Virus record (IMG/VR): IMGVR_UViG_3300025372_000012
Location: 39,501-103,500 of that record
DNA from: a virus
Lineage: Duplodnaviria > Caudoviricetes
Reading direction: 5' to 3' (one strand)
DNA: 64,000 nucleotides
Part shown: piece by piece, positions 26,851-57,240 of the stretch
How positions within the stretch are numbered: the stretch's first letter is position 1
Layout of the letters: every line of letters starts with the position of its first letter
Translations under genes and position numbers: made by a program
The notes under the pieces: model-generated
The model's database searches: none
What the model was told of the DNA's origin: nothing
What the model saw: the letters and a program-made list of their open reading frames with translations, nothing else

Positions 26851-26856
26851 TATTTA
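26851..26856 (-). promoter_or_regulatory. Putative late promoter TAAATA
   Basis: tattta on the + strand, 7 nt from ATG 26843; overlaps the HNH stop codon. Confidence 0.55.
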
Positions 26857-27492
26857 TTGAACTATAGACTTACAATTATCTCCGTGCCATCGTATATAAT
26901 TCCCTCCGGTAACTTCTTTTTCACAATGCGGACATTTATTTTTAACGCGAGTTTTTGCTCGATCTTTAATTTTTTTAAGAGTTTCTTCTGAATGCCGTTT
27001 TCCTTGATTCCATGTTCCTACTATTGAAGCAGCTTTTTTCCTTTTTTCAGATATTAATTGACGTTCTTCGTTAGTTCTAGGAATTCCCTTATTCCATGGT
27101 ATTTTTCCTGTATTTGCTCTGGAGATCTTTTTCTTTGTTTCGTTTGATGTTATTACACCTTTTCTTAACGAGCCGTAACATAATCTTAATGATTCGTATG
27201 TACGCGAATTAGGAATATATCGTTCTTGTTTTGGTGACCCTTTAACAAGCATTCTCCAAAATGCTTGTTTCATTTTTATTAAATTATTACCATCAAGCAT
27301 CTTAGTTAATAACCAATGGCAGATAAAGTGTTCTCTTGCTGTCAACCGAACTAGGTTTGTTTTTAAATTTGATCCACCTAATGATCTTGGAATAATATGA
27401 TGTTTTTCAGAGTAACCATTTGTCAATTGTCGTTGGATACCCCTATTGATAATTTGATAATACACTCGAGTGTATTTGTTAACTAAATACAT
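26854..27492 (-). mobile_element. Free-standing HNH homing endonuclease with NUMOD3-like repeats
   Basis: EKHHIIPRSLGGSN...LVRLTAREHFICHWLL; ETKKKIS, PWNKG and HSEETLKKI; C-terminal CPHC. Confidence 0.9.
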
Positions 27493-38638: not shown

Positions 38639-40552
38639 ATGAAAGCAATCCAAATAATCAGTCAAGACCTATTCGACAAAGTTCGCAGCCGTTTCAGTAA
38701 TTTAGAAATGGGTGACGAAACTGGCGCAGTAACTATTGATCCTGCAGAAGCACGTTTCTTTGATTTTGATTTTGTACATGAGGATGTAAATCTTGGTCGT
38801 GTTAGTATCAGCTTAAATGAACTAGGAAGTTTAAAAGTTTATTACAGCCAAGGCATTACAGAAAATCAAGATGATCCTGCAAAGAAAACTTGGTATAGTT
38901 TCCTAAGAGAAATGCGTTTCTTTGCTATGCGTAGACTACTACGTTTTGATACACGTGACATTGCTAAAACAAATCTTGATAAGAATGATTTTCAGCACCT
39001 TGCTACTACGCAAGGCACTAAGGAAGAACCCGAAATGAATACAATGAACGAATCCAGATGGAATCACAAAAGTACTAAAAAGACTAGCCGTGCTGTAAAA
39101 GGACAAACAGAAGTTATTGTTCGCCATAGCCAAGCAGTTGACGAAATGTATCCAGGCGCACGTAGCCAACGTAAAAACATCAAGGCAATTTTTATTCAAA
39201 ACAAAGACGGCGAACGTTTCAAGTATCCTTTTATACATCCGGCAGGTGCGTTCGCAATGGCACAACACGTTGATCATGGCGGTGCACCACATGATCCAGC
39301 AGGCAAAGCAATTATCAAAATGAGCGAACAAATTGCTCAACTACAAGAATTTCAACGTAAAATAAGTCGCTCTACTCTTCACGACGACGCAACAGGAATT
39401 ACAGAACGTGCCATAGGCCGATTACAAGAATTAAAAGCAAGAGTAGAAGCATTAGGCAAACGTCACCATTATGAAGCATGGGTTGCTGAAATGACCGGTC
39501 AACCAGAAGCCGGTGACGATATTATGGAACTAGATGCTGTTACTATGGAGCAGTATAAACAAGCATTTACACAAACAAGTTTTCAAGAAGAACTGGCAGG
39601 TTACTTCCCACTACTTCACACAATTATGAGTGAAACAAATACAATAGATCTTGAATCTTATGTAAAAGAAGAAAGTGATATTTGTCCAGATTGCAAAGAA
39701 GATCCTTGTGTATGTGACAATCATGCAAAGAAAGAAAGTGCATTTGAAGAATTTGAAAATTGGGCAGAAGCTGTTGAACAAGGTAAATTAACCGACGACG
39801 AAATCGAAGCATTGAAGCAAGCGTTGGCAGCATTACCACAAGGTCCCGATGGTCCAGAATTAGAACTAGGACCAAACGGTGACACAGCATGGCAATTCTT
39901 TAGTGGACTAGGTTTAGACGATGGCGACTTAGAGAAGAAACTAGAAGCCGCTGCCGAACTAGATCCAGAAACTGATCCAGTAGAAGTTATGGCATTATGG
40001 GCAAAAGATCATTATCCAGAACTATTAGTGGCATTGGGCATCAGCGGTGAGGAACAACCACCTGCCGAAGCGCCACCTGCTCCTGAACAACCAACTGCCG
40101 AAAATGAAGAAAACAAAGGGCGTGAGCAAATGATGCCAACACGCGAAGGCATTGTTAAAGAAGTTGCTAAAATTGTTAAGAGTTTTTATAATGCAGACAA
40201 TCCAGAAGTTGGTCCATTCCGTGGCGGCGAAGGCATTGCTCTTGATTGCAAAAAGAAAATTGCAGAGAAGTTTGGAGATCAAGCCGGTACATTTGCAGAA
40301 GAAATGGCTGGTAAATTCATCGAAAAACTAACACAAGAATGGCAACAAAAACACGGACACGTTGCCAACGGTCACGGTGATGATGGGCTGGCACGTTTAA
40401 AAGAACTTGTTGGTAATATCAAAACTAAGGTAGAAGGTATCGGCGACCGTGGTAACGGCGGTGCAGACTTTAACAACAACATTATGTCTGCAGAAGAAAG
40501 TATTTTACCAGAAATGGCTGAAATCTTAAAGTTATCCGGATTGGCAAAATAA
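38639..40552 (+). CDS. Large acidic hypothetical protein, possibly head-internal
   Basis: 637 aa; TAAATA 5 nt upstream; CPDCKEDPCVC cluster; ends EILKLSGLAK. Confidence 0.7.
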   Translation: MKAIQIISQDLFDKVRSRFSNLEMGDETGAVTIDPAEARFFDFDFVHEDVNLGRVSISLNELGSLKVYYSQGITENQDDPAKKTWYSFLREMRFFAMRRLLRFDTRDIAKTNLDKNDFQHLATTQGTKEEPEMNTMNESRWNHKSTKKTSRAVKGQTEVIVRHSQAVDEMYPGARSQRKNIKAIFIQNKDGERFKYPFIHPAGAFAMAQHVDHGGAPHDPAGKAIIKMSEQIAQLQEFQRKISRSTLHDDATGITERAIGRLQELKARVEALGKRHHYEAWVAEMTGQPEAGDDIMELDAVTMEQYKQAFTQTSFQEELAGYFPLLHTIMSETNTIDLESYVKEESDICPDCKEDPCVCDNHAKKESAFEEFENWAEAVEQGKLTDDEIEALKQALAALPQGPDGPELELGPNGDTAWQFFSGLGLDDGDLEKKLEAAAELDPETDPVEVMALWAKDHYPELLVALGISGEEQPPAEAPPAPEQPTAENEENKGREQMMPTREGIVKEVAKIVKSFYNADNPEVGPFRGGEGIALDCKKKIAEKFGDQAGTFAEEMAGKFIEKLTQEWQQKHGHVANGHGDDGLARLKELVGNIKTKVEGIGDRGNGGADFNNNIMSAEESILPEMAEILKLSGLAK

Positions 40553-43464: not shown

Positions 43465-43473
43465 GTGTATAAT
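43445..43473 (+). promoter_or_regulatory. Sigma70-like promoter
   Basis: TTGAAG-17 nt-TATAAT; ATG 43480 falls at the expected +1. Confidence 0.6.
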
Positions 43474-43479
43474 AGTACT

Positions 43480-44652
43480 ATGAACATTGAAGATTTGATG
43501 ATTGCACTGATTTATTCCAACATTAAGAAGAATGATTGGGATACTAAACTTGGTTATAGCTTTTATGACCAAATTAGCCGTGGGTCCGGTTTCACAGAAA
43601 AACAAAGTAACCTGGCAATTAAAATTCTTAGCCGGCATCATATGGCACTGAGTGTGGCTCTTAACAAAAATATTGCTCCATTCCTCGAAAATCCGGTATT
43701 TCGACTACCTATACGTAAAATTAGTGAATCAAAACAATTAAGCGTAGTGGAGCATTCTCAGCATGGCAGAGTGATTAAGGCAATATTTCCTTACAATGAG
43801 AAAACGGTTGAGAATATTAGAAAAAATCGAGACTCAATAGGATCAGCAGTTTGGGACAAAGAGGAAAAATGTTGGTTTTTTGCCCTAAACGAAGAAAGCA
43901 TCAAATTTTTGAGAGATTTAGATAATTTCGGAACAGACGAAATGTTTCAAAATTATGTTTCTCAAATAAAATCAATTGAAGACGAGTTAGAAAATCATAT
44001 ACCAATGTTGGTAATTGAAGACGGTATGCCAAAATTGAAAAATTGTGCCTCATCAGTGCCTATCCTTGAAACAACTGATATTTTGACCTCAATTTTTGAG
44101 GCAAGAAAACGTGGAATTTTTACATGGGACGACACTATCTCTAATTTTTTAGATAGCGACGAAGTTGATCCTCTCACAAGAGATTTCTTAAAAGCCGATC
44201 CCAGTAAGGAAACAGGGCTGGATAAGGATTTACACCAAATTTCTGAATTTTCCGCCATTGTCAAGCACCTACTGCCTATACTGGTTGTAATCCCCGGTGG
44301 TAACGAATTAGAGACAATGAAAATTTCTTGCGAATTTTTGACCAATTTAGGAATTGCCAACGACGAGATGAGTGTGCTGTTTAGACTGCCTTCTACTACC
44401 CATGAAAATTTCAATAATTTTGTGAAATTTAATGAATTGAATTCACCAATTTCTGAAAAAACTAAAGTAGTCTTCGTCAGTAGCAAAATGCCTAAGCCTG
44501 TGTTAAAATCTAAAATTAAATTTCATAGTTCATTGAATTTAGGTTACAGCAACGTGCATTACACTATGAGAAATTTCTTGAAAAATCAGGAAAATTCACT
44601 GATTTATACAAAAGAAAAAGAAATAAGGAATATTAAGTTTGGGTTCATGTAA
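43480..44652 (+). CDS. Hypothetical protein with HARP-like segment
   Basis: FPYNEKTVENIRK...WDKEEKCWFF; overlaps the uvsW start. Confidence 0.65.
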   Translation: MNIEDLMIALIYSNIKKNDWDTKLGYSFYDQISRGSGFTEKQSNLAIKILSRHHMALSVALNKNIAPFLENPVFRLPIRKISESKQLSVVEHSQHGRVIKAIFPYNEKTVENIRKNRDSIGSAVWDKEEKCWFFALNEESIKFLRDLDNFGTDEMFQNYVSQIKSIEDELENHIPMLVIEDGMPKLKNCASSVPILETTDILTSIFEARKRGIFTWDDTISNFLDSDEVDPLTRDFLKADPSKETGLDKDLHQISEFSAIVKHLLPILVVIPGGNELETMKISCEFLTNLGIANDEMSVLFRLPSTTHENFNNFVKFNELNSPISEKTKVVFVSSKMPKPVLKSKIKFHSSLNLGYSNVHYTMRNFLKNQENSLIYTKEKEIRNIKFGFM

Positions 44653-46870: not shown

Positions 46871-47315
46871 TATTAAACGTGAACTAAATGGCGTAGATCG
46901 TAAACAATATGATTTCTACGATAATCTCACAGATGAAGAAAAGAAAGCATTTAGTCCATATATACTAATGCGTTATACCAGCAACGTACAAGGTGATAGA
47001 GATATTCAAGAATGGTTTCTTGAAATGACAAATGAATGTGTCAATAAGAATCATTGGGATCTAAGCAAGAACCATAAAGCATTATTGTGGAAGTTATTTG
47101 CTGCTACAGGTGCAGGAGTAAACTGCTACCATCCTTATTTGGCAGCAGGTAAAAAAGAAAAAGCAAACAAGATAGAAAAATTATTAGCAGAACTATATCC
47201 AGCAATGAAGATGGAAGATATTAAAATAATGGCTTCTATGATGGATAAATCAGACAAAGAAGAATTGTTTGACAAGATGGGGTTTGATAAGAAACAACGG
47301 AAAGAATACGAGTGA
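46851..47315 (+). CDS. Possible clamp-loader small subunit (gp62-like)
   Basis: FSPYILMRYTS...NE pattern and size; weak similarity. Confidence 0.45.
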   Translation: MATAKLDIKRELNGVDRKQYDFYDNLTDEEKKAFSPYILMRYTSNVQGDRDIQEWFLEMTNECVNKNHWDLSKNHKALLWKLFAATGAGVNCYHPYLAAGKKEKANKIEKLLAELYPAMKMEDIKIMASMMDKSDKEELFDKMGFDKKQRKEYE

Positions 47316-48007
47316 TAGCATTAGTGGATCAACCTTATAAATGTGTACATTGTAATAAGAGCTTCATGCAGGAGAAGACTCTTGTTGCTCATATGTGTGA
47401 GCGCAAACGCCGGGCTTTACAAAAAAACGAGAAGCGTGTTCAAGCAGGTTACATGGCGTTTAATCGTTGGTGGCAACTTGCACAAAATGCTAAAAAATTA
47501 AAAACATACGACGAATTCTGTGACACATCTTACTACAATGCATTTGTTAAATTTGGTAGTTTTGTCAACAATGTTAATCCTATCTATCCTGAGAAGTTTA
47601 TAGACTACGTTATCAAAAGTGGTGTCAAATTAGACCATTGGTGTAGGGATGAATTGTATGATCAATATTTGGTTGAGATGTTAAAAGTCGAACCTGTTGA
47701 AAGCGCAGTCCAAAGGTCTTTACAAACAATGATGGAATGGGGAGAAGAGCATCGTGCAGAATTTGCACATTACTTCAACTATGTAAGTCTCAACAAAGCA
47801 GTATACGATATCAAAAACGGCATGATCAGTCCGTGGGTTATTTTAAATACCGTATCCGGAAAAGAAATGGTACAAAAAATGAGCGATGAACAATTAAATA
47901 TGATTTCAACATCGTTCGATGTACCTTTTTGGCTTCGTAAATTTAAAGAAATTCCTGCCGACGTCGCTCTGGTAAAAGAGATATGCCGGGAAGTTGGCAT
48001 AAAATGA
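47312..48007 (+). CDS. Zn-finger-containing hypothetical protein
   Basis: YKCVHCNKSFMQEKTLVAHMC at the N-terminus. Confidence 0.7.
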   Translation: MIALVDQPYKCVHCNKSFMQEKTLVAHMCERKRRALQKNEKRVQAGYMAFNRWWQLAQNAKKLKTYDEFCDTSYYNAFVKFGSFVNNVNPIYPEKFIDYVIKSGVKLDHWCRDELYDQYLVEMLKVEPVESAVQRSLQTMMEWGEEHRAEFAHYFNYVSLNKAVYDIKNGMISPWVILNTVSGKEMVQKMSDEQLNMISTSFDVPFWLRKFKEIPADVALVKEICREVGIK

Positions 48008-48315: not shown

Positions 48316-48500
48316 TGAACATAGTAAAAGAAGGAAGTTGTTGGTGGGGCGGCGACTCTAAAAAATTTATAGTTCTTGCTGTTATAGAACAAGAAGGAAA
48401 TACTTGGGTGCATTACCGTGACGATGGTAACGAATCACCTAAAGAATATAGTTGTTATCTAGAAAGTTTTCTAAGTAGATTTATTGAGGTACCAAAATGA
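48315..48500 (+). CDS. Small hypothetical protein
   Basis: 61 aa; SD ggag; coupled on both sides. Confidence 0.65.
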   Translation: MNIVKEGSCWWGGDSKKFIVLAVIEQEGNTWVHYRDDGNESPKEYSCYLESFLSRFIEVPK

Positions 48501-48856
48501 CAAGATTAACTGGTTACGTTGAAAAAGGTTGGGGACACGAATATATTTTTGCCACCAATGACAAGTATTGCGGAAAAATAATGAAGTTTAATAAAGACGC
48601 AAAATTTAGTATGCATTTTCACTCAGAGAAAGATGAGACATGGTTTGTATTGAGTGGTAAATTTATTGTTAAATGGATTGATACCGTAACAGCTGACCAC
48701 TACGAACAAGAATTAAACGTAAACGACACGTGGCACAACCCTCCATTTTTCCCTCATCAGGTTATTTGTGTAGAAGAAGGTGCCCTTATCGAAGTTAGTA
48801 CTCCCGATAGTATAGCAGACAATTATCGAGTTGCTAAGGGAGATAGTCAAAAGTGA
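48497..48856 (+). CDS. Cupin sugar isomerase-like protein (M6P/D-lyxose isomerase type)
   Basis: KGWGHE...SMHFHSEKDETWFVLSG...PH...EVST. Confidence 0.8.
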   Translation: MTRLTGYVEKGWGHEYIFATNDKYCGKIMKFNKDAKFSMHFHSEKDETWFVLSGKFIVKWIDTVTADHYEQELNVNDTWHNPPFFPHQVICVEEGALIEVSTPDSIADNYRVAKGDSQK

Positions 48857-49626
48857 AAATATTAATCACAGGGTATAAAGGATTTATCGGGCAGAATCTA
48901 ACAGAATTCTTAAAAGATCACGAGCTTTCTTTTTACGAACCTGGAGATGATTTACCCTTGGTAAATGGACTAGATTGGGTAATTCACCTAGGGGCATTGA
49001 CATCTACAACTGAAAAAAATGTAGGACTAGTGTTAGATCACAATTACGATTTTAGTAGATGGTTAGTAAATGAATGTCTAAAACATAAAGTTAACTTTCA
49101 ATATTCTAGCTCTGCAAGTGTGTATGGACAAAGTAAAAATTTCAACGAAAGTGCTCCTGTAAACCCACAAAGCCCTTACGCATGGAGTAAGTACCTCTTT
49201 GATAGATATATTACAAATTTAGCAGGTGGTTGGCCTATTAAAGTGCAAGGCTTTAGGTACTTCAACGTGTACGGACCTTACGAAGATCATAAAGGCGACC
49301 AAGCAAGTCCTTATTATAAATTTGAGAAACAGGCCAAAGAAAATGGTGTTATAAAGTTATTCGAAGGCAGTGATAAATTTTTTAGAGACTTTGTTCCAGT
49401 TGAAACCGTTTGTAAAATACACAAACATTTTTTAAGTGTTCCTGATACAGGTATCTGGAATGTGGGAACTGGTATAGCTACATCTTTTGAAAGTGTAGCA
49501 CGTTCGATAGCTGATAAGTATTCAGCACGTATAGAATATATTCCAATGCCGGAAAGTTTAAAAGGTCAGTATCAAGAATACACCTGCGCCGATGTAACTT
49601 TATTAAAGACCTACTATAATATATGA
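48853..49626 (+). CDS. hldD: ADP-L-glycero-D-manno-heptose 6-epimerase-like SDR
   Basis: TGYKGFIG, HLGALTSTTE, YSSSASVYG, YAWSK, FRYFNVYGPYEDHKG, RDFV, YQEYTCAD. Confidence 0.85.
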   Translation: MKILITGYKGFIGQNLTEFLKDHELSFYEPGDDLPLVNGLDWVIHLGALTSTTEKNVGLVLDHNYDFSRWLVNECLKHKVNFQYSSSASVYGQSKNFNESAPVNPQSPYAWSKYLFDRYITNLAGGWPIKVQGFRYFNVYGPYEDHKGDQASPYYKFEKQAKENGVIKLFEGSDKFFRDFVPVETVCKIHKHFLSVPDTGIWNVGTGIATSFESVARSIADKYSARIEYIPMPESLKGQYQEYTCADVTLLKTYYNI

Positions 49627-50015
49627 AAATATTTGTCAACGGAACTTTTGATATTTTACATCGTGGGCATCTTGAAATGCTCGAGTATGCAAAAAGCCTC
49701 GGTGTTTATTTGTTAGTTGCTATTGACACAGACAGAAGAGTACAAGAGTTAAAAGGTCTGACTCGGCCTATCAACAATCAATACGATAGGCAGTTTTTTT
49801 TAAAAAAATTAAGATCAGTTGACGATGTTTGGTTTTTTAATAGCGAAGAAGAATTAGAATATATCTTAGAATCCTATAGACCCGATATCATGGTTAAAGG
49901 TAGTGACTACAGAGATAAGCCTATTGTAGGATCTCAATATTGTAAAGAAATAAAATTTTATGAGCACACAGGACATTCTACAACGGGACTCATTCAACGT
50001 ATTACTAATAGGTGA
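49623..50015 (+). CDS. hldC: Heptose-1-phosphate nucleotidyltransferase-like (HldE domain II)
   Basis: NGTFDILHRGH, LKGxxRPIN, VKGSDY, GHSTT. Confidence 0.8.
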   Translation: MKIFVNGTFDILHRGHLEMLEYAKSLGVYLLVAIDTDRRVQELKGLTRPINNQYDRQFFLKKLRSVDDVWFFNSEEELEYILESYRPDIMVKGSDYRDKPIVGSQYCKEIKFYEHTGHSTTGLIQRITNR

Positions 50016-50736
50016 TAGTTGTATCGACGAGTATAAAATTGGAACCATTGATAGGTTAAGTCCTGAAGCCCCAGTACCTGTAATTAAAATTGTCGAAACA
50101 GAAGTTGTGCCAGGAATGGCATCTAACGTCAAAAAGAACTTCGAAAATCTCGGCGTATATGTAGACTTTATAACAAACACTGAAGAAATTAAAAAGACTC
50201 GCTATATAGACAAACGTTCTGGTCAGCACATGTTGCGAGTCGATAGCGAACCTAAAATTACTTCTTGGAATGAACAGACCCCGGCACCGTTTGATCAGTA
50301 TGATGTAGTTGTTGTCAGCGACTACAACAAAGGTTTCTTAACCTATGAGAATATAGAACATATTCTTAAATCGGTTAAGTGTCCAGTATTCATTGATACT
50401 AAGAAAACACAACTAGCCGACATAAGTGCCGGACATGCCTACTTTAAAATTAACGAGCTCGAATCAAAGAACGCTAGAAGTATTCCGAGCAATCTGATTA
50501 TAACTATGGGCGACAGAGGTGCATACTATAATGGACAAATATTTACAACTACCCCTGTAGAAGTTACCGATGTTTGCGGCTGCGGAGATACTTTTTTGGC
50601 TGCATTGGCCGTCCAATATCTATATACAAAAAGCATAGAAAAAAGTATAATGTTTGCTAATGCCGCGGCGGGAATTACCGTAAAACATAGAGGAAACTAT
50701 GCACCGTCATATGACGAAATTAGGAAATTAAAATGA
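49960..50736 (+). CDS. hldA: Heptose-7-phosphate kinase-like PfkB protein (HldE domain I)
   Basis: IGDSCIDEY...RLSPEAPVPV, SDYNKG, DVCGCGDTF. Confidence 0.85.
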   Translation: MSTQDILQRDSFNVLLIGDSCIDEYKIGTIDRLSPEAPVPVIKIVETEVVPGMASNVKKNFENLGVYVDFITNTEEIKKTRYIDKRSGQHMLRVDSEPKITSWNEQTPAPFDQYDVVVVSDYNKGFLTYENIEHILKSVKCPVFIDTKKTQLADISAGHAYFKINELESKNARSIPSNLIITMGDRGAYYNGQIFTTTPVEVTDVCGCGDTFLAALAVQYLYTKSIEKSIMFANAAAGITVKHRGNYAPSYDEIRKLK

Positions 50737-51437
50737 TACTAGAAAAAGCCGACAACGTAAACCCAGATACATATTGCTACGAAACCTCAATCCAATTCAG
50801 TGAGGATTTTTGTAAAAGATTGTTAGCTGACATTTTAAAAGATCCAAGTTTTCTTATGCAACGTAAAAAATATTTGGATCCTACTAAGCACCTTGATGAG
50901 ATTTTTGAAAAATTAAACTTTTTTGAAAAAAAGCAATTCATGAGAAGGATGCATCAGTACCAAGAGAAATACAAAGATAAAACTTTAATTGATTTTACAC
51001 AATACTTTATTCCTCCCGATCTTGAAGAAGAATTTAATAGCCTTGTGCCACAATGGCTAAAGGATATTGCACCCGGCGAACCTAGAGTAGGTGTGCAACT
51101 TAGCTCGGGCGGAGATTATCTACTTCCTCATAAAGGACATCAACGACAAAGTTCGTTGTTTATGTTGCTACAAGGCAACGGAGAAGAAACACATTGGTAT
51201 CGAGAAACGGGAGAGTTTGAAGTTTATGATTTCTTTCGTGTGCCCGATCTAAACAATATCGAAACAATTGTAAGAGCGCAACTACAACCATTTAAATGGA
51301 CATTGTTTAATCACAAGGCGTGGCATAGCGTCCATAACTTTACACCAAGAGGTCTGCGTATTAATATTGGAATAGATTTCGATAGCGTTCCAGCTGAAGA
51401 ATTGCTTAAAATAGTAAAAGAACACGAGAGTAAATAA
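50733..51437 (+). CDS. Fe(II)/2OG-oxygenase-like protein with HxG motif
   Basis: LPHKGHQR...THWY...FNHKAWHSV...LRINI fits the DSBH layout. Confidence 0.6.
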   Translation: MILEKADNVNPDTYCYETSIQFSEDFCKRLLADILKDPSFLMQRKKYLDPTKHLDEIFEKLNFFEKKQFMRRMHQYQEKYKDKTLIDFTQYFIPPDLEEEFNSLVPQWLKDIAPGEPRVGVQLSSGGDYLLPHKGHQRQSSLFMLLQGNGEETHWYRETGEFEVYDFFRVPDLNNIETIVRAQLQPFKWTLFNHKAWHSVHNFTPRGLRINIGIDFDSVPAEELLKIVKEHESK

Positions 51438-52009
51438 TGCCCGATATTGACATCGACTTTGCGGATAGAACAAAGATTTTGGACATCATAAAACATGTTC
51501 CTGCCACTATTTTGGAAAAAGGTGTCAACAAGAAACATAACACAGGCGTTTATAGTAGTAGTATCCCTGTAAATCCTCTAACAGGTAATGCAAGTATAGA
51601 TTACAGAGAAGCGGAAGACCGTGGATACTTTAAGATAGATTTTTTGAACGTGGGCATTTACAAAGATGTCCAAAGTGAAGAACATCTAACTCGACTACTT
51701 AACCAGGAACCGTTATGGGATCTATTATTGGAAGACGAATTCACGAACAACCTGTTTCACGTGAATGGACATGGGATGATCTTAAGGCAGATGAAGCCAA
51801 AAAGTATCGAGGAATTAGCCGCTGTGTTGGCAGTGATTCGCCCGGCAAAGCGATACTTGATTGGGCAAGATTGGTCCGTTGTGAAGAACGAAGTTTGGCA
51901 GAAACCCGCCGGAGATGAGTATTATTTTAAGAAGGCCCATGCAATAGCCTATGCGGCTGCTATTGTGGTGCAGATGAATCTTATCTGCGAAGGAATTAGT
52001 TCCGAGTAG
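51437..52009 (+). CDS. Miniature DnaE (Pol III alpha) palm-like protein
   Basis: PDIDIDF, KHNTGV, FKIDFL, LAVIRP and FKKAHAIAYA in DnaE order within 190 aa. Confidence 0.85.
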   Translation: MPDIDIDFADRTKILDIIKHVPATILEKGVNKKHNTGVYSSSIPVNPLTGNASIDYREAEDRGYFKIDFLNVGIYKDVQSEEHLTRLLNQEPLWDLLLEDEFTNNLFHVNGHGMILRQMKPKSIEELAAVLAVIRPAKRYLIGQDWSVVKNEVWQKPAGDEYYFKKAHAIAYAAAIVVQMNLICEGISSE

Positions 52010-52379
52010 TTCTCGGACTACGAACTAATTGTATCAGTTTTCTTTTAATACGTTTTTCGGCAATTTCGCTTAAATTGACCGTAGGACCGAATACTAGTTC
52101 TATATCCTTGCTGTTGAATGTCTTTATTGCATACCTAAATAATTGCATTTCTTTCTTAAGGAAAATGTTGATAGGTATCTTTCTGTTACTTTCCCACCAC
52201 CAAACTTCGCCCATTTCTAAGAAGATTTTACGTTCTTCTTCCGTTTTAATTTTAGAAATGTCGTATATACTGGTAACGAAATTATCTAGGTTGATAATAA
52301 TACCTACGTATTCTGTATCGTTGCTTTTGACGCATGATACAAAAGGATAGTTAGATTGGAAAGCACTGGGTGAAATCAT
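51996..52379 (-). CDS. Hypothetical protein
   Basis: 127 aa with WWWESNRKIPINIFL. Confidence 0.7.
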   Translation of the reverse strand: MISPSAFQSNYPFVSCVKSNDTEYVGIIINLDNFVTSIYDISKIKTEEERKIFLEMGEVWWWESNRKIPINIFLKKEMQLFRYAIKTFNSKDIELVFGPTVNLSEIAEKRIKRKLIQLVRSPRTTRN

Positions 52380-53250: not shown

Positions 53251-54234
53251 GTGAATGAAATACTCTCTACACTCTTAGCATTACTCCCACCGAATCGTAA
53301 AAATACTTCGGGCGGTTGGGTAAGTTTCAACGCTGTCTGTTGCCACCATAGAGGTGAAAAGCCAGACACACGCAAACGCGGCGGTATAAAAACTGACAAC
53401 GATGCTTGGACATATCATTGCTTCAATTGTGGATATAAAGCAGGATGGTCGCCTGGTAAACTATTAAGTTCAAATACAAAACAACTATTCAAATGGTTAG
53501 GACTCAGTGACACTGATGTGGGCAAATTAGGTCTTGTTGCACTCAAACATCAGGAAAATATGCCCAATGTGGCGAAGGCCCTAAACTTCACGCTTAATGA
53601 AATCGCCCTACCAGAAGACAGCAAAAAGTTAATCGATTGGATTAACGAGGGAGTAGATGTAACCGACATAGTCGAATATCTTTTAAACAGAGGTATGGAT
53701 ATAGACTGGTATGATTGGATGTGGTCGCCTGCACCTGGATACAAAGATAGAATACTTATACCATTTTACCAAGATGGAAAGGTAGTTGGTTACACTGGAC
53801 GTAAAATCACAGAAGGTAAACCTAAGTATCTAACAGACAGCCAAAGCGGTTATGTTTTTAACTTAGATCGTCAGGTCCGTGATAGAGAATATGTGATAGT
53901 TGTAGAAGGTCAATTTGATGCCATCGCCATAGACGGTGCTGCCATAATGACCAACGAGCCTAACGACACCCAGGTTGCTAGATTGCAGGCACTGGGTAGA
54001 GAAATTATATGTGTGCCTGACAAAGATCTGCCCGGTGCTAAGATGCTCAAACATGCTATCAAAAATAATTGGAGCGTGAGTTTACCGCCATGGGGTGACG
54101 ATGTCAAAGACGTTGCAGATGCTGTAAAGAAATACGGCAGGCTATATACGCTAACCACAATCTTGCACTACAGGGTGTCGGGAGAGATAAAAATAAATCT
54201 ACTGAAGAAAAAATTAGAAGGCCTAAATGAATAA
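53251..54234 (+). CDS. gp61: DNA primase
   Basis: Zn domain (CCHH...HCFNC), YTGR...PKY, TOPRIM VEGQFDA, PDKD, KDVAD. Confidence 0.9.
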   Translation: MNEILSTLLALLPPNRKNTSGGWVSFNAVCCHHRGEKPDTRKRGGIKTDNDAWTYHCFNCGYKAGWSPGKLLSSNTKQLFKWLGLSDTDVGKLGLVALKHQENMPNVAKALNFTLNEIALPEDSKKLIDWINEGVDVTDIVEYLLNRGMDIDWYDWMWSPAPGYKDRILIPFYQDGKVVGYTGRKITEGKPKYLTDSQSGYVFNLDRQVRDREYVIVVEGQFDAIAIDGAAIMTNEPNDTQVARLQALGREIICVPDKDLPGAKMLKHAIKNNWSVSLPPWGDDVKDVADAVKKYGRLYTLTTILHYRVSGEIKINLLKKKLEGLNE

Positions 54235-55690
54235 ACCAAACTACGACTATGAAATGCAAAAATTGTATCTTGAGATGTTTCTCAGTGATGCAGAAACCTT
54301 TGTCCGCTGTCAAAATATTTTTGATCATGAAAACTTTGATCAACGACTACAAGATGCCGCAGAATTTATTAACAAGTATGTTGATGAATACAAAGTTATG
54401 CCCGAGGCAAATATTGTCAATGCGGCAACAAAGAGTCAATTTAATCCCGTACCATTGCCTAGAGAAAACTATGATTGGTTAATGAACGAATTTGAGGACT
54501 TTAGTCGTCACAAGGGATTAGAACGTGCGATTATTAAATCAAGCGATTTGTTAGAAGCAGGAGATTATGGACCTGTTGAAAAGCTGATCAAAGATGCTAT
54601 CCAGATCAGTTTGAATAAGGATATGGGTACAGACTACTTTGAATCTCCTAGAGAACGATTGACTAAACTTAAGGATGGAAACGGGCAGATTTCAACAGGA
54701 TGGCCTAGCATTGATAAGAAACTTTATGGCGGGTTTAACCGCGGTGAGTTGAATATTTTCTGTGCAGGATCTGGCGGTGGTAAGAGTTTGTTCTTAGCAA
54801 ACTTAGGAGTAAACTGGGCACTAGCGGGCTTGAATGTAATCTACTTAACTTTCGAACTTTCGGAAGGTTTAGTGTCTATGCGCTTGGATAGTATGACAAC
54901 GGGCATTGGTACTAGGGACATCTTCCGCAACATTGACGATGTTGAATTAAAGGTTAAAATGTTGCAAAAACGCTCAGGAAACCTTCAAGTTAAGTATATG
55001 CCTAGTGGGAAAAATTGTAACGATATTCGAGCCTATTTGAAGGAATATCAGGTCAAAACAGGTCGAAAACCAGACGTTTTGTTAATAGATTACCTCGATT
55101 TGATGATGCCTTTATCTGTGAAGGTATCGCCCAGCGATCTGTTCGTAAAAGACAAATATGTGTCGGAAGAGATCCGTAACTTGGCTATGGAAACACAATG
55201 TATTACGGTAACAGCTAGTCAGCTTAACCGATCAGCAGTTGAAGAAATTGAGTTCGATCACAGCCATATTTCAGGCGGGTTGAGTAAGATTATGACAGCA
55301 GATAACGTGATCGGTATCTTTACGAGCAGGGCTATGAAAGAGCGTGGACGTTATCAAATCCAATTTATGAAGACACGTTCTAGCTCAGGTGTAGGACAAA
55401 AAGTCGACTTAGAGTTTAACTTAGATACATTACGTATCAGCGACCTAGGCGACGAGGATGACAATAATTACAGCGGTAATAACAATAACAAACCTCAGAG
55501 TCCGGCAGGGGGTGCGTATGCTAACTTAAAACGTACCAGCACCGTTAGCACTACAACTGATCCCGAAACTGGAGAAATTCGAGACGTTGATCCTAAACAA
55601 GGAATGAACATTAAGGCACCAGCAACTAAACCTAATAGTGCTCCGCTGATGAGATCAATGTTGAATAATTTAAATCCTGAAAAAGATTAA
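54227..55690 (+). CDS. gp41: Replicative DnaB-like helicase
   Basis: AGSGGGKS, TFELSE, IDYLDLM, TASQLNR. Confidence 0.92.
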   Translation: MNKPNYDYEMQKLYLEMFLSDAETFVRCQNIFDHENFDQRLQDAAEFINKYVDEYKVMPEANIVNAATKSQFNPVPLPRENYDWLMNEFEDFSRHKGLERAIIKSSDLLEAGDYGPVEKLIKDAIQISLNKDMGTDYFESPRERLTKLKDGNGQISTGWPSIDKKLYGGFNRGELNIFCAGSGGGKSLFLANLGVNWALAGLNVIYLTFELSEGLVSMRLDSMTTGIGTRDIFRNIDDVELKVKMLQKRSGNLQVKYMPSGKNCNDIRAYLKEYQVKTGRKPDVLLIDYLDLMMPLSVKVSPSDLFVKDKYVSEEIRNLAMETQCITVTASQLNRSAVEEIEFDHSHISGGLSKIMTADNVIGIFTSRAMKERGRYQIQFMKTRSSSGVGQKVDLEFNLDTLRISDLGDEDDNNYSGNNNNKPQSPAGGAYANLKRTSTVSTTTDPETGEIRDVDPKQGMNIKAPATKPNSAPLMRSMLNNLNPEKD

Positions 55691-55692
55691 TT

Positions 55693-57240
55693 GTGTTTCA
55701 TGTTTTACTTTTCTCAGATATCTATAGACCACTGCATGGAAAAGGCATGGGCGTATACCGCTTGGCCAATCACTTACGCAACTCAGGATATCGAGTAAAA
55801 GTTATTCACGGATTTTGTAAACTTACAGACATTGAATTTTATGACTTGTGTGATACGTTTGTCACAGAAGAAACGTTGATGATAGGTGTAGGTGCTACCG
55901 TCTTAGCAAATTTAGAAGACTCGAATTTCTTTGGCATCGATAGCAGTTCTGCTAGAAATAGATTTACAATAATAAAAGAAAAGTACCCAGCAGTAAAATT
56001 ATGCCTAGGTGGCGCTCAGGCTACGGGCGCTACCGATACATATCTTCAAAACTTTAATTATTTTGATTATGTAATCAAAGGACAAGGAGAAAATGTAACC
56101 GTAGCCTTGTTGGATCATTTAAGCAAAGGTTCCAAATTAATATCTACTACGGTTACTCGTCCACGGATACTATCTGATAAAACTTATCCATTTGAAGATT
56201 TTAATACAACCGTTAATTTTTTCAATGCTGATGATGCAATACAACACGGAGAAGCACTGCCTATCGAACTTGCTAGAGGCTGTATCTTTAAATGTAAATT
56301 CTGTGGATACGACCTCGTAGGTAAGAAATTAGGCGACTACACCAAACCTGCTGATCTAATTCGTGCAGAACTATTATCCAATTACAATCAATGGGGCACT
56401 ACTGATTACTATGTTGCAGATGAAACTATCAATGACAGCATAGAAAAGGTAGACATGCTGTTAGAAAGTGTACAGGGATTACCTTTCAAACCTACGTTCG
56501 GAGGATTTCTAAGACTTGACCTTATTTGGAAATTTCCAGAGATGGCACAAAAGTTATTAGACTGGGGATTAGAGGCATGTAGTTTTGGAATTGAAACTAT
56601 CAATGATGCCAGTGGTCGTGCTGTAGGCAAAGGTCTGGGTCGTAAACGTATAGAACAAACATTGCAACATTTGAGGGATGTATGGGGAGACCATGTATTT
56701 GTCAATGCCAGTTTCATCTTAGGACTCAAACACGATACACACGCTACAGCACTTGAATTGGATGAATGGATTGGTGATATGTATCAACGTAGGTTGTTGC
56801 ATGAGGTATTCGTAAAACCTTTATATATCATGCCTCAAACAAGACTAAGCATATTAGATAAAGATTTCCTAGAACATGGATATACCGTAATGCCTTCGGA
56901 TCAGGCAAAGGTAGTTTCAGATAGAACTAGAACCGTGGTACAAGAAGATTGTGTGATTTGGAAGACCAAAGAATATGATTTTGTTACAGCAACCTATGAT
57001 GCTGATATCATACATAAAAAATATAACGGTATGAAGGTATGCAAAGGACGTATCGGCAAACACAATTTTGCGTTTGTGAAATCCCTATTACCCGCAGAGC
57101 ATAAAAGACAATTATTAAATTGTCAAATAAACGATCAACCGTTTACCGGAATGTCAGTTAAAGAAACTGAAGACTATATAAGCAGTTTAGATCGAGCACA
57201 CTTTGCTCGTTATATAAACTTAGTTAAAACCAAGCGTTGA
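55693..57240 (+). CDS. B12-binding-domain radical SAM enzyme
   Basis: ELARGCIFKCKFC, DETIND, FGIET, SFILGL; N-terminal LGGA...GQGE domain. Confidence 0.85.
   Translation: MFHVLLFSDIYRPLHGKGMGVYRLANHLRNSGYRVKVIHGFCKLTDIEFYDLCDTFVTEETLMIGVGATVLANLEDSNFFGIDSSSARNRFTIIKEKYPAVKLCLGGAQATGATDTYLQNFNYFDYVIKGQGENVTVALLDHLSKGSKLISTTVTRPRILSDKTYPFEDFNTTVNFFNADDAIQHGEALPIELARGCIFKCKFCGYDLVGKKLGDYTKPADLIRAELLSNYNQWGTTDYYVADETINDSIEKVDMLLESVQGLPFKPTFGGFLRLDLIWKFPEMAQKLLDWGLEACSFGIETINDASGRAVGKGLGRKRIEQTLQHLRDVWGDHVFVNASFILGLKHDTHATALELDEWIGDMYQRRLLHEVFVKPLYIMPQTRLSILDKDFLEHGYTVMPSDQAKVVSDRTRTVVQEDCVIWKTKEYDFVTATYDADIIHKKYNGMKVCKGRIGKHNFAFVKSLLPAEHKRQLLNCQINDQPFTGMSVKETEDYISSLDRAHFARYINLVKTKR

Follow-up and report, generated by a model that had tools for sequence, protein, structure and literature searches.

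The window analysed here is a 64,000-nucleotide stretch (positions 39,501 to 103,500) of the IMG/VR virus record IMGVR_UViG_3300025372_000012, which is 103.5 kb long and estimated to be 29% complete. Based on Pfam/PHROG profile searches, the window encodes tail fibre, sheath and tube proteins and a terminase, together with a gp32-like single-stranded DNA-binding protein, UvsX, UvsY, a UvsW-like helicase, a DnaG-like primase and a DnaB/gp41-like helicase; because tail, terminase and T4-like replication/recombination genes are all encoded there, its source is, as judged by gene content, a T4-related jumbo myovirus. Within the module of gp32, UvsX, UvsY, UvsW, primase and helicase genes sits an open reading frame (ORF) of 190 amino acids (aa) related to the alpha subunit of DNA polymerase III (Pol III alpha, DnaE), referred to below as the C-half. 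Its features, with residue equivalences to Escherichia coli (E. coli) Pol III alpha (structure 2hnh), are as follows.

51437..52009, plus strand: C-half ORF, 190 aa, comprising the metal-binding portion of the palm and a shortened fingers segment (phrog_11778, E 2.6e-68; AlphaFold2 (AF2) model with predicted local distance difference test (pLDDT) 96.7; VIA Z 9.7)
51443..51451, plus strand: codons of D3-I4-D5, the DxD metal-binding pair (E. coli D401/D403; phmmer alignment to 2hnh residues 399-406)
51632..51640, plus strand: codons of K66-I67-D68, the KxD motif with the third Asp (E. coli K553/D555; family-profile alignment to 2hnh residues 539-641)
51839..51844, plus strand: codons of R135-P136, a fingers motif (E. 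coli R639-P640; family-profile alignment to 2hnh)
51926..51955, plus strand: codons of F164-A173 (FKKAHAIAYA), the fingers helix (E. coli F756-A765, with H168 = H760; family-profile alignment, domain 2)
51435..51439, plus strand: TAATG stop/start overlap with an upstream 234-aa ORF (50733..51437), the TAA at 51435-51437 and the ATG at 51437-51439

The initial annotation of this sequence had described an intact 190-aa miniature DnaE that starts at PDIDIDF, is coupled through TAATG to the ORF upstream and retains all three catalytic aspartates, and these points hold. The protein begins MPDIDIDF, i.e., at the DxD strand, and an N-terminal extension is excluded because an in-frame TAA lies at 51431-51433, two codons 5' of the ATG. 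The motifs KKHNTG (residues 32-37), FKIDFL (65-70), IRPAK (134-138) and FKKAHAIAYA (164-173) then follow in the order that had been described, and the chain ends 17 residues beyond the last of these. What did not stand is KHxxG as a conserved motif: H34 and G37 are kept in at least 90% of 80 diverse family members (defined below), but the Lys is not. D3, D5 and D68 align to D401, D403 and D555 of the E. coli enzyme, its catalytic carboxylates, and F164, K166, H168 and Y172 align to F756, K758, H760 and Y764, of which H760 is a proposed steric gate.

The predicted fold leads to the same enzymes. The AF2 model of the C-half (predicted template modelling score 0.88) is superposed by VIA-align on residues 461-841 of Thermus Pol III alpha (3e0d_A) with a root-mean-square deviation (rmsd) of 3.8 and 188 of its 190 residues aligned, on residues 400-781 of E. 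coli Pol III alpha with Z 8.9, rmsd 4.2 and 185 residues aligned, and on PolC with Z 9.4. The top 16 VIA rows are all DnaE/PolC, with the next, unrelated row at Z 3.5, and every one of the top 16 Foldseek hits in the PDB is a C-family polymerase. The 190 aa are thus spread over about 381 residues of the full enzyme, in agreement with the earlier proposal that intervening domains had been removed. Specifically, the distance from DxD to KxD is 63 residues in the mini form vs. 150 in a full-length DnaE (L182, 1160 aa), i.e., about 87 are missing, and the distance from RP to FxKxH is 29 residues vs. 117 in E. coli numbering (about 88 missing); by DnaE domain boundaries, these deletions correspond to the thumb and part of the fingers. 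The structural alignment stops at about E. coli residue 781 of 1160, with nothing after the fingers helix.

It is close to certain that the gene belongs to the split minimal Pol III alpha family, as its C-terminal unit. phrog_11778, annotated 'DNA polymerase', matches C-half residues 3-186 over profile positions 8-194 of 197, and the Pfam scan gave no PF07733 (DNA_pol3_alpha) hit to the C-half. By tblastn, 96 cultured-phage records hold a C-half, 93 of them with at least 80% query coverage and all with less than 60% identity. These are Atu_ph07, Phosso, PA5oct and their kin, and 121Q/PBECO4/RaK2-like phages of Escherichia, Klebsiella, Salmonella, Erwinia, Xanthomonas and Yersinia, in which the annotation of the protein ranges from 'hypothetical' to 'DnaE-like DNA polymerase III alpha'. 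At least 571 IMG/VR stretches encode a relative, and an exhaustive search of 1.84 billion cluster representatives returned 443 matches at E <= 1e-3; among the matches listed, the window C-half shares at most 86% identity with other IMG/VR copies, and its nearest cultured phage is at about 54%. The family is that of the Rak2/121Q/PA5oct/Atu_ph07-like (group 2.2) jumbo myoviruses, for which Iyer, Anantharaman, Krishnan, Burroughs and Aravind (2021, Viruses 13:63, PMC7824862) already describe a split minimal Pol III. The gene in the window is a typical member of that family and, hence, is not new. As a side observation, one protein of 233 aa (P0123) matches the C-half over residues 6-113 before running on into unrelated sequence, and probably represents a copy that is chimeric or has been disrupted.

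Conservation was assessed in a close set, consisting of the window and 80 IMG/VR loci (73 distinct proteins; pairwise identity 56-100%, median 70%, measured on 78 rows), and in a diverse set of 80 members at 33-61% identity. Complete C-half ORFs are 186-195 aa long in 80/80 cases, with one further copy, which has a Leu start, cut by the end of its stored stretch. In the close set, 46 positions are invariant in 81/81 sequences, including D3, D5, D7, K66, D68, R135, P136, K138, F164, K165, H168 and Y172; across the 80 diverse members the sole invariant columns are D3, D5, K66, D68 and P136, and R135, K165 and H168 are conserved at 90% or more. The variants of the close set keep every Asp: the Pro is missing from six proteins, which start MDxDxDF, while PDIDIDL occurs once and KIDLL three times. 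The start at M(P)DxDxDF is shared by 66 of the 80 loci (60 MPD, six MD), and in the other 14 the longest ORF opens 5-33 residues further upstream or has a Leu in first position, probably from a TTG start codon. Of 3240 pairs, 1098 were usable for Nei-Gojobori estimates of the ratio of nonsynonymous to synonymous substitution rates (dN/dS); the median is 0.106 and the highest value 0.226, with the 5-95% range running from 0.065 to 0.169. By these substitution patterns, the C-half gene is under strong purifying selection and is not a decaying fragment; neither of the two outcomes that would have spoken against a functional gene, variable-length decaying homologues or unconserved Asp residues, is found.

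The C-half lacks the GRGS loop, and the initial annotation had predicted a separate small gene carrying GRGS elsewhere in the genome. Such a gene, termed here the N-half, is present in all three complete cultured relatives (121Q, Phosso and PAC2) as an ORF of 169-177 aa that ends ...G(V/L)GRGSSVASY...(L/F)D..EFL(N/K/KW) followed by a stop, and it represents in each a second PF07733 match (profile positions ~16-97 of 260) far from the C-half; tested as a separate protein, the N-half scores above the PF07733 cut-off with E 4.7e-12. It is annotated 'DNA polymerase III alpha subunit' in 121Q (gp56, the C-half there being gp16) and 'DnaE-like DNA polymerase III alpha' in Phosso, where, as in 121Q, it adjoins a GroES-like gene and the clamp loader. 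The gap between the two genes measures about 30 kb in 121Q and 43 kb in PAC2, widens to 182 kb in Atu_ph07 and 224 kb in Phosso, and is about 158-180 kb on the environmental contigs that are nearer to the window. The N-half is also present on four of five large environmental contigs, the single miss being 42% complete; over the cultured and environmental genomes together it is 161-177 aa long. Further, it occurs in 101 phage records, with genus tallies nearly equal to those of the C-half (N-half/C-half records: Escherichia 34/34, Salmonella 8/8, Erwinia 8/8, Xanthomonas 4/4, Yersinia 4/4), and at least one of the extra N-half records is an ordinary full-length phage dnaE; among the records compared (40 for the C-half, 60 of 101 for the N-half), 27 C-half records recur among those of the N-half. 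A family B polymerase (PolB), whose presence had been raised in the same context, is found as a frame of 825-1013 aa in all three cultured relatives (split over two frames in PAC2) and in two of three environmental relatives, including the one that is 100% complete.

The position of the break is equally uniform. N-halves of IMG/VR are 155-171 aa long, carry GxGRGS and stop straight after (E/D)FLR in 80/80 loci. In an hhalign comparison with full-length DnaE, residues 81-167 of the N-half fall on positions 294-402 (probability 96.4%), and the reference DnaE has six residues (NPERVT) between this segment and MPDIDVDF. Because the N-half ends uniformly, six residues before MPDIDVDF in DnaE, the break is one clean, shared cut inside the palm. 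The presence of the N-half gene in relatives and the conservation of the Asp residues support the earlier suggestion that the C-half is one half of a split minimal C-family polymerase. With regard to the alignments themselves, A2 (fusions plus many halves) misplaced N-halves under the C-terminal part and was discarded, while a set of 30 N-halves and 10 C-halves aligns correctly and is the basis of A3 and A4, with a few N-half tail residues smeared in A3. Residues 1-80 of the N-half (L102:1501-1740 and relatives) have no counterpart in the DnaE alignment and are divergent between phage groups.

Single-chain forms of the pair also occur naturally and are rare. The proteins P0108, P0152 and P0153, which stand for three clusters, are 375-376 aa long, share 78-81% identity with one another, come from different contigs and sources, and have a common junction and a common C-terminus. 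Each begins with an N-half (GVGRGSS; BLASTP E 2e-24 to that of Phosso), which a linker of nine residues connects to a C-half, and the PF07733 match spans the junction. These fusions are known from protein records on contigs of 2.4-5.9 kb, and no fusion DNA was found in IMG/VR; a metagenome scan for it gave three distant matches, of which one is an ordinary split C-half and two match across residues 106-205, one of the latter (L182) being a full-length bacterial DnaE. In a quick maximum-likelihood tree rooted at the midpoint, the fusions form one clade (SH-aLRT, i.e., approximate likelihood-ratio test, support of 100) nested among stand-alone C-halves, with enclosing nodes at 82-94 and with the 'split' label of P0154-P0162 based on length and start alone. 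This topology suggests that the fusions likely stem from a single secondary fusion event. For the fusion, AF2 gives a model with pLDDT 83.6, in which residues 81-180 and 191-375 are confident and residues 1-80 and the linker poor. As one body the model superposes on intact Pol III alpha with Z 21.2, rmsd 3.8 and 323 residues aligned, and on PolC with Z 19.8; 14 C-family rows have Z of at least 13.5, followed by CCA-adding enzymes, TUTases, Rel and Pol beta at Z <4. The accessible text of Iyer et al. 2021 (PMC7824862) does not mention such 375-aa forms, which we regard as an addition of this analysis.

Binding between the separate halves is supported by structure prediction of another phage's pair, i.e., the N- and C-half of the same genome (G003), each chain with its own alignment. 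The complex prediction score is 0.92 in three of three runs vs. 0.01 for the best control, and the 0.92 mark is reached by 58 of 80 solved complexes and by 2 of 110 mismatched pairs. The runs share at least 98% of their contacts, with partner pLDDT of at least 92. In the predicted interface, C-half residues 6-8, which belong to the DxD strand, contact W133-G134 of the N-half, just before GRGS. Several of N-half residues 1-80 are likewise predicted to touch the C-half, despite being poorly modelled in the fusion.

From the homology, conservation, co-occurrence, fusions and the predicted fold and interface, we infer a catalytic activity, DNA as its substrate and a biological role according to the following model. 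The C-half would supply the carboxylates D3, D5 and D68, the Lys of the KxD motif (K66) and a cut-down fingers (R135-P136; F164..H168..Y172), and the N-half (about 160-177 aa, encoded tens to hundreds of kb away) would supply the GxGRGS nucleotide-phosphate loop and the first half of a Pol-beta-like palm. The two chains would associate non-covalently, with the DxD strand of the C-half packing on the N-half strand that precedes GRGS, and in this way one nucleotidyltransferase active site would be rebuilt. The core of about 360 residues would retain little of what separates the palm from the fingers motifs in DnaE and nothing past the fingers helix; by domain boundaries, the missing parts are the PHP, thumb, beta-clamp-binding, HhH and OB domains of DnaE. 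Such a mini Pol III would coexist with a T4-like PolB replisome and may serve in short-patch synthesis, repair or primer extension beside the primase-helicase.

The steps of this model are not equally probable. Because of the co-occurrence, the natural fusions and the complex prediction, the N-half and C-half very probably form a heterodimer. That the rebuilt site is an active nucleotidyltransferase site seems nearly as probable, because the carboxylates and the Lys are invariant, the GRGS loop is conserved and purifying selection is strong. Overall, we consider it likely that the gene encodes the C-terminal unit of a two-piece minimal Pol III alpha, probably an auxiliary, template-directed DNA polymerase. 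For the part of this statement that concerns template-directed DNA synthesis by the pair, the balance tips modestly in favour, since the fingers motifs have been retained, Pol III alpha is matched far better than template-independent nucleotidyltransferases are, and the gene belongs to a replication/recombination module. A bolder form of the same idea is that the two halves make up a self-sufficient, active C-family polymerase of about 360 residues, the smallest of its family, which would have a task of its own in a PolB-based T4-like replisome, e.g., primer extension beside the primase-helicase or gap filling in recombination-dependent replication; we hold this tentatively, as somewhat short of an even chance.

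Several points weigh against the polymerase interpretation or soften its evidence. At the family level, the only Pfam match of the C-half is to PF17657 (finger), at 16.7 bits and thus under the cut-off of 22. Searches of the whole 103.5 kb fragment to which the window belongs gave no match to PF07733, PF00136, PF02811 (the PHP domain), PF00929 (RNase_T/DnaQ) or the N-half protein; that is, neither an N-half nor a PolB was found there. These negatives are uninformative because the record is only 29% complete, with about 250 kb of the genome lacking, and both the N-half and PolB would lie beyond the fragment since the separation in the closest relatives is about 160-180 kb. The modelled complex is that of G003, whose C-half shares 70% identity (tblastn; 69% in alignment A6) with that of the window, and not the window's own pair; its high score may reflect likeness to solved, intact relatives and thus not be independent evidence, and the AF2 fold and complex predictions in general may lean on memorised Pol III alpha structures. 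Our literature search, with most subscription journals outside its reach, found no biochemical study of mini Pol III activity. The thumb, beta-binding domain and HhH of DnaE grip duplex DNA and the clamp, and for a core without these parts stable templated synthesis is not assured. Further, the full PolB replicase of the relatives means that a replicative role of the mini Pol III is not required. Because the duplex-gripping parts are lost and PolB is present, we give a non-replicative or untemplated role some weight.

The alternative that we consider most seriously, and still regard as unlikely, is that the pair is an active Pol-beta-fold nucleotidyltransferase that does not follow a template, for instance a terminal transferase, an RNA/primer tailing enzyme or a synthase of a nucleotide product; the initial annotation, too, had named a repurposed nucleotidyltransferase as its other option. 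With 190 aa spread over ~381, the greater part of the stretch from the palm to the fingers motifs has been lost, as has all beyond the fingers helix. This loss, as well as the PolB replicase already present in relatives, would fit such an enzyme, and CCA-adding enzymes, TUTases and Rel are indeed the nearest non-C-family folds to the fusion model, but with Z <4 as opposed to 21.2 for Pol III alpha. The fingers motifs R135-P136, F164, K165, H168 and Y172 are kept and conserved, however, and Iyer et al. (PMC7824862) identify the fingers as the DNA-template-binding subdomain; in addition, the replication/recombination module is kept in 68-76 of 80 loci. We give far less credence to the idea that the C-half works without the N-half, alone or docked on a host protein, e.g., as a decoy of the host Pol III. 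The two genes are never adjacent (30-224 kb apart) and the window's own record, 29% complete, is without the partner. On the other hand, the two co-occur in 3/3 cultured genomes and 4/5 large contigs (the single miss at 42% completeness), natural fusions of the two exist, the C-half by itself is without the GRGS loop of the active site, and no segment of it aligned to DnaE outside residues 400-781. The clamp-, tau- and epsilon-binding regions of DnaE lie outside these residues.

Two further explanations have next to no probability left. Naturally split dnaE genes whose products are joined by a split intein are a precedent known from cyanobacteria, and the two phage genes could in principle be joined post-translationally in the same manner. 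Yet no Hint/intein family was detected in the C-half at E <= 0.01, nor in the N-half, C-half or fused form even at E <= 1; the N-half stops straight after its EFL(R/N/K) segment in 80/80 loci, leaving no room for an N-intein of typical size; and only the five longest C-half ORFs, with 25-33 extra residues, approach the size of a C-intein, the window ORF having no extension. The view of the ORF as a decaying remnant of a once full-length phage dnaE draws on its size (190 aa vs. >1000 for DnaE) and on weak Pfam scores, but it is refuted by the uniform length (80/80 at 186-195 aa), the dN/dS values (median 0.106, maximum 0.226), the 46 positions invariant in 81/81 sequences, catalytic residues that are invariant down to 33% identity, and a confident predicted fold (pLDDT 96.7).

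The system closest to this two-piece enzyme is the split Pol III of Iyer et al. 2021 (phrog_11778), which it resembles in matching the profile over its full length, in where the split falls, in the distant partner gene and the coexisting PolB (both being those of the relatives) and in lying within a replication module. Nothing different in kind separates the window copy from that family, except that it is preceded by an extra 234-aa ORF seen in 0/80 related loci. According to the same article (PMC7824862), the mini Pol III accompanies the family B polymerase and may cooperate with it on one strand or in repair; it may also model the ancestral enzyme, with growth of the C-family from such a core being proposed. 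Two later polymerase surveys do not contain the word 'jumbo', and the main text of the PA5oct omics paper does not contain 'DNA polymerase' and thus offers no expression timing.

Bacterial DnaE and PolC share with the mini form a homologous Pol-beta-like palm, the same DxD...KxD carboxylates and the same fingers motifs, but they are single chains of 1000-1400 residues as opposed to about 360 residues in two chains. DnaE has an N-terminal PHP domain, whereas the C-half begins MPDIDIDF and no PF02811 match exists in its own record; DnaE continues past the fingers helix, where the mini form ends, and the part missing there is the clamp-binding, HhH and OB portion. The mini Pol III accompanies PolB and is not the only replicase. 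Cyanobacterial dnaE is naturally split over two distant loci, with the products joined by a trans-splicing intein. The likeness to this case is that of a C-family gene split over two distant loci; the differences lie in the intein/Hint domain, which is absent here, in the split point (here between the GRGS and DxD palm segments) and in the size of the enzyme. A precedent for a working repair polymerase built from a stripped core is Pol X of African swine fever virus, a viral Pol-beta-fold polymerase of NT fold plus fingers subdomain (PMC11646218). Pol X is a single chain of the X family vs. two chains of the C family, and its activity is known from the literature, whereas that of the phage enzyme is predicted.

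Should the pair be active, it would mark out the minimal catalytic core of the polymerases that copy bacterial chromosomes, and its one active site would be composed of two chains with separate genes. The presence of a C-family enzyme alongside a family B replicase in the same virus also bears on the origin of the two unrelated replicase lineages. Both of these questions, i.e., the minimal core and the origin of replicases, were raised already in 2021; this analysis contributes the invariance of the catalytic residues, a dN/dS near 0.1, a break at one common point, a count of at least 571 copies from the environment, a fold predicted with confidence, a predicted interface and the fusions. Should the self-sufficient polymerase prove true, the 375-aa fusions would be at hand as a minimal Pol III for studies of structure and mechanism, and they could test the growth of the C-family from such a core, as proposed by Iyer et al., against shrinkage from a full DnaE.

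The genes that surround the C-half are the following.

47312-48007: C2H2 zinc-finger gene (phrog_11058)
48497-50736, plus strand: sugar-nucleotide cassette (cupin, NAD-dependent epimerase, cytidylyltransferase-like protein and PfkB kinase; Pfam/PHROG)
50733..51437, plus strand: 234-aa ORF, TAATG-coupled to the C-half, with no Pfam/PHROG family
51996..52379, minus strand: convergent 127-aa ORF of unknown function (phrog_11637, E 2.7e-33), its 3' end overlapping the C-half gene by 14 nt
53251..54234, plus strand: DnaG-like primase (phrog_47, E 1.2e-40)
54227..55690, plus strand: DnaB/gp41-like helicase (phrog_19, E 5.8e-70; DnaB_C, E 4.9e-16)

Counted over the 80 environmental (IMG/VR) loci, this neighbourhood is largely conserved, with the C2H2 zinc-finger gene upstream of the C-half in 74, the convergent small ORF on the minus strand just 3' of it in 76, and a virion protein and the primase downstream in 72 and 68, respectively. 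The gene order around the C-half is identical in 121Q, Phosso and PAC2, including the convergent arrangement of the 127-aa ORF. Based on this position, the 127-aa protein could be a functional partner of the C-half; an Atlas search with it gave no usable lead (best score 0.78). The 234-aa ORF, in contrast, is not a conserved partner, because it is seen at this place in 0/80 related loci; its Atlas clusters are phage-only, with a sub-threshold lead (0.89) to 2OG-Fe(II) oxygenases. The sugar-nucleotide cassette lies between the C2H2 gene and the C-half, and its genes are here in only 11-19 of the 80 loci; its cytidylyltransferase-like protein belongs to phrog_7878, which is heptose kinase/adenylyltransferase-like.

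A few observations concern genes farther away in the window. Between UvsY and the UvsW-like helicase lies a 395-aa ORF (43465-44649, plus strand) with no Pfam or PHROG match, and 121Q has at the same position a 272-aa 'DNA polymerase exonuclease subunit' (DnaQ-like). Right after the replicative helicase, a 515-aa protein (55693-57240, plus strand) matches radical SAM (E 3.1e-09) and no PHROG family, with a B12-binding domain match under the Pfam cut-off. Finally, a homing-endonuclease gene (26854-27492, minus strand; phrog_655, E 1.8e-49) is located among the tail and virion structural genes.

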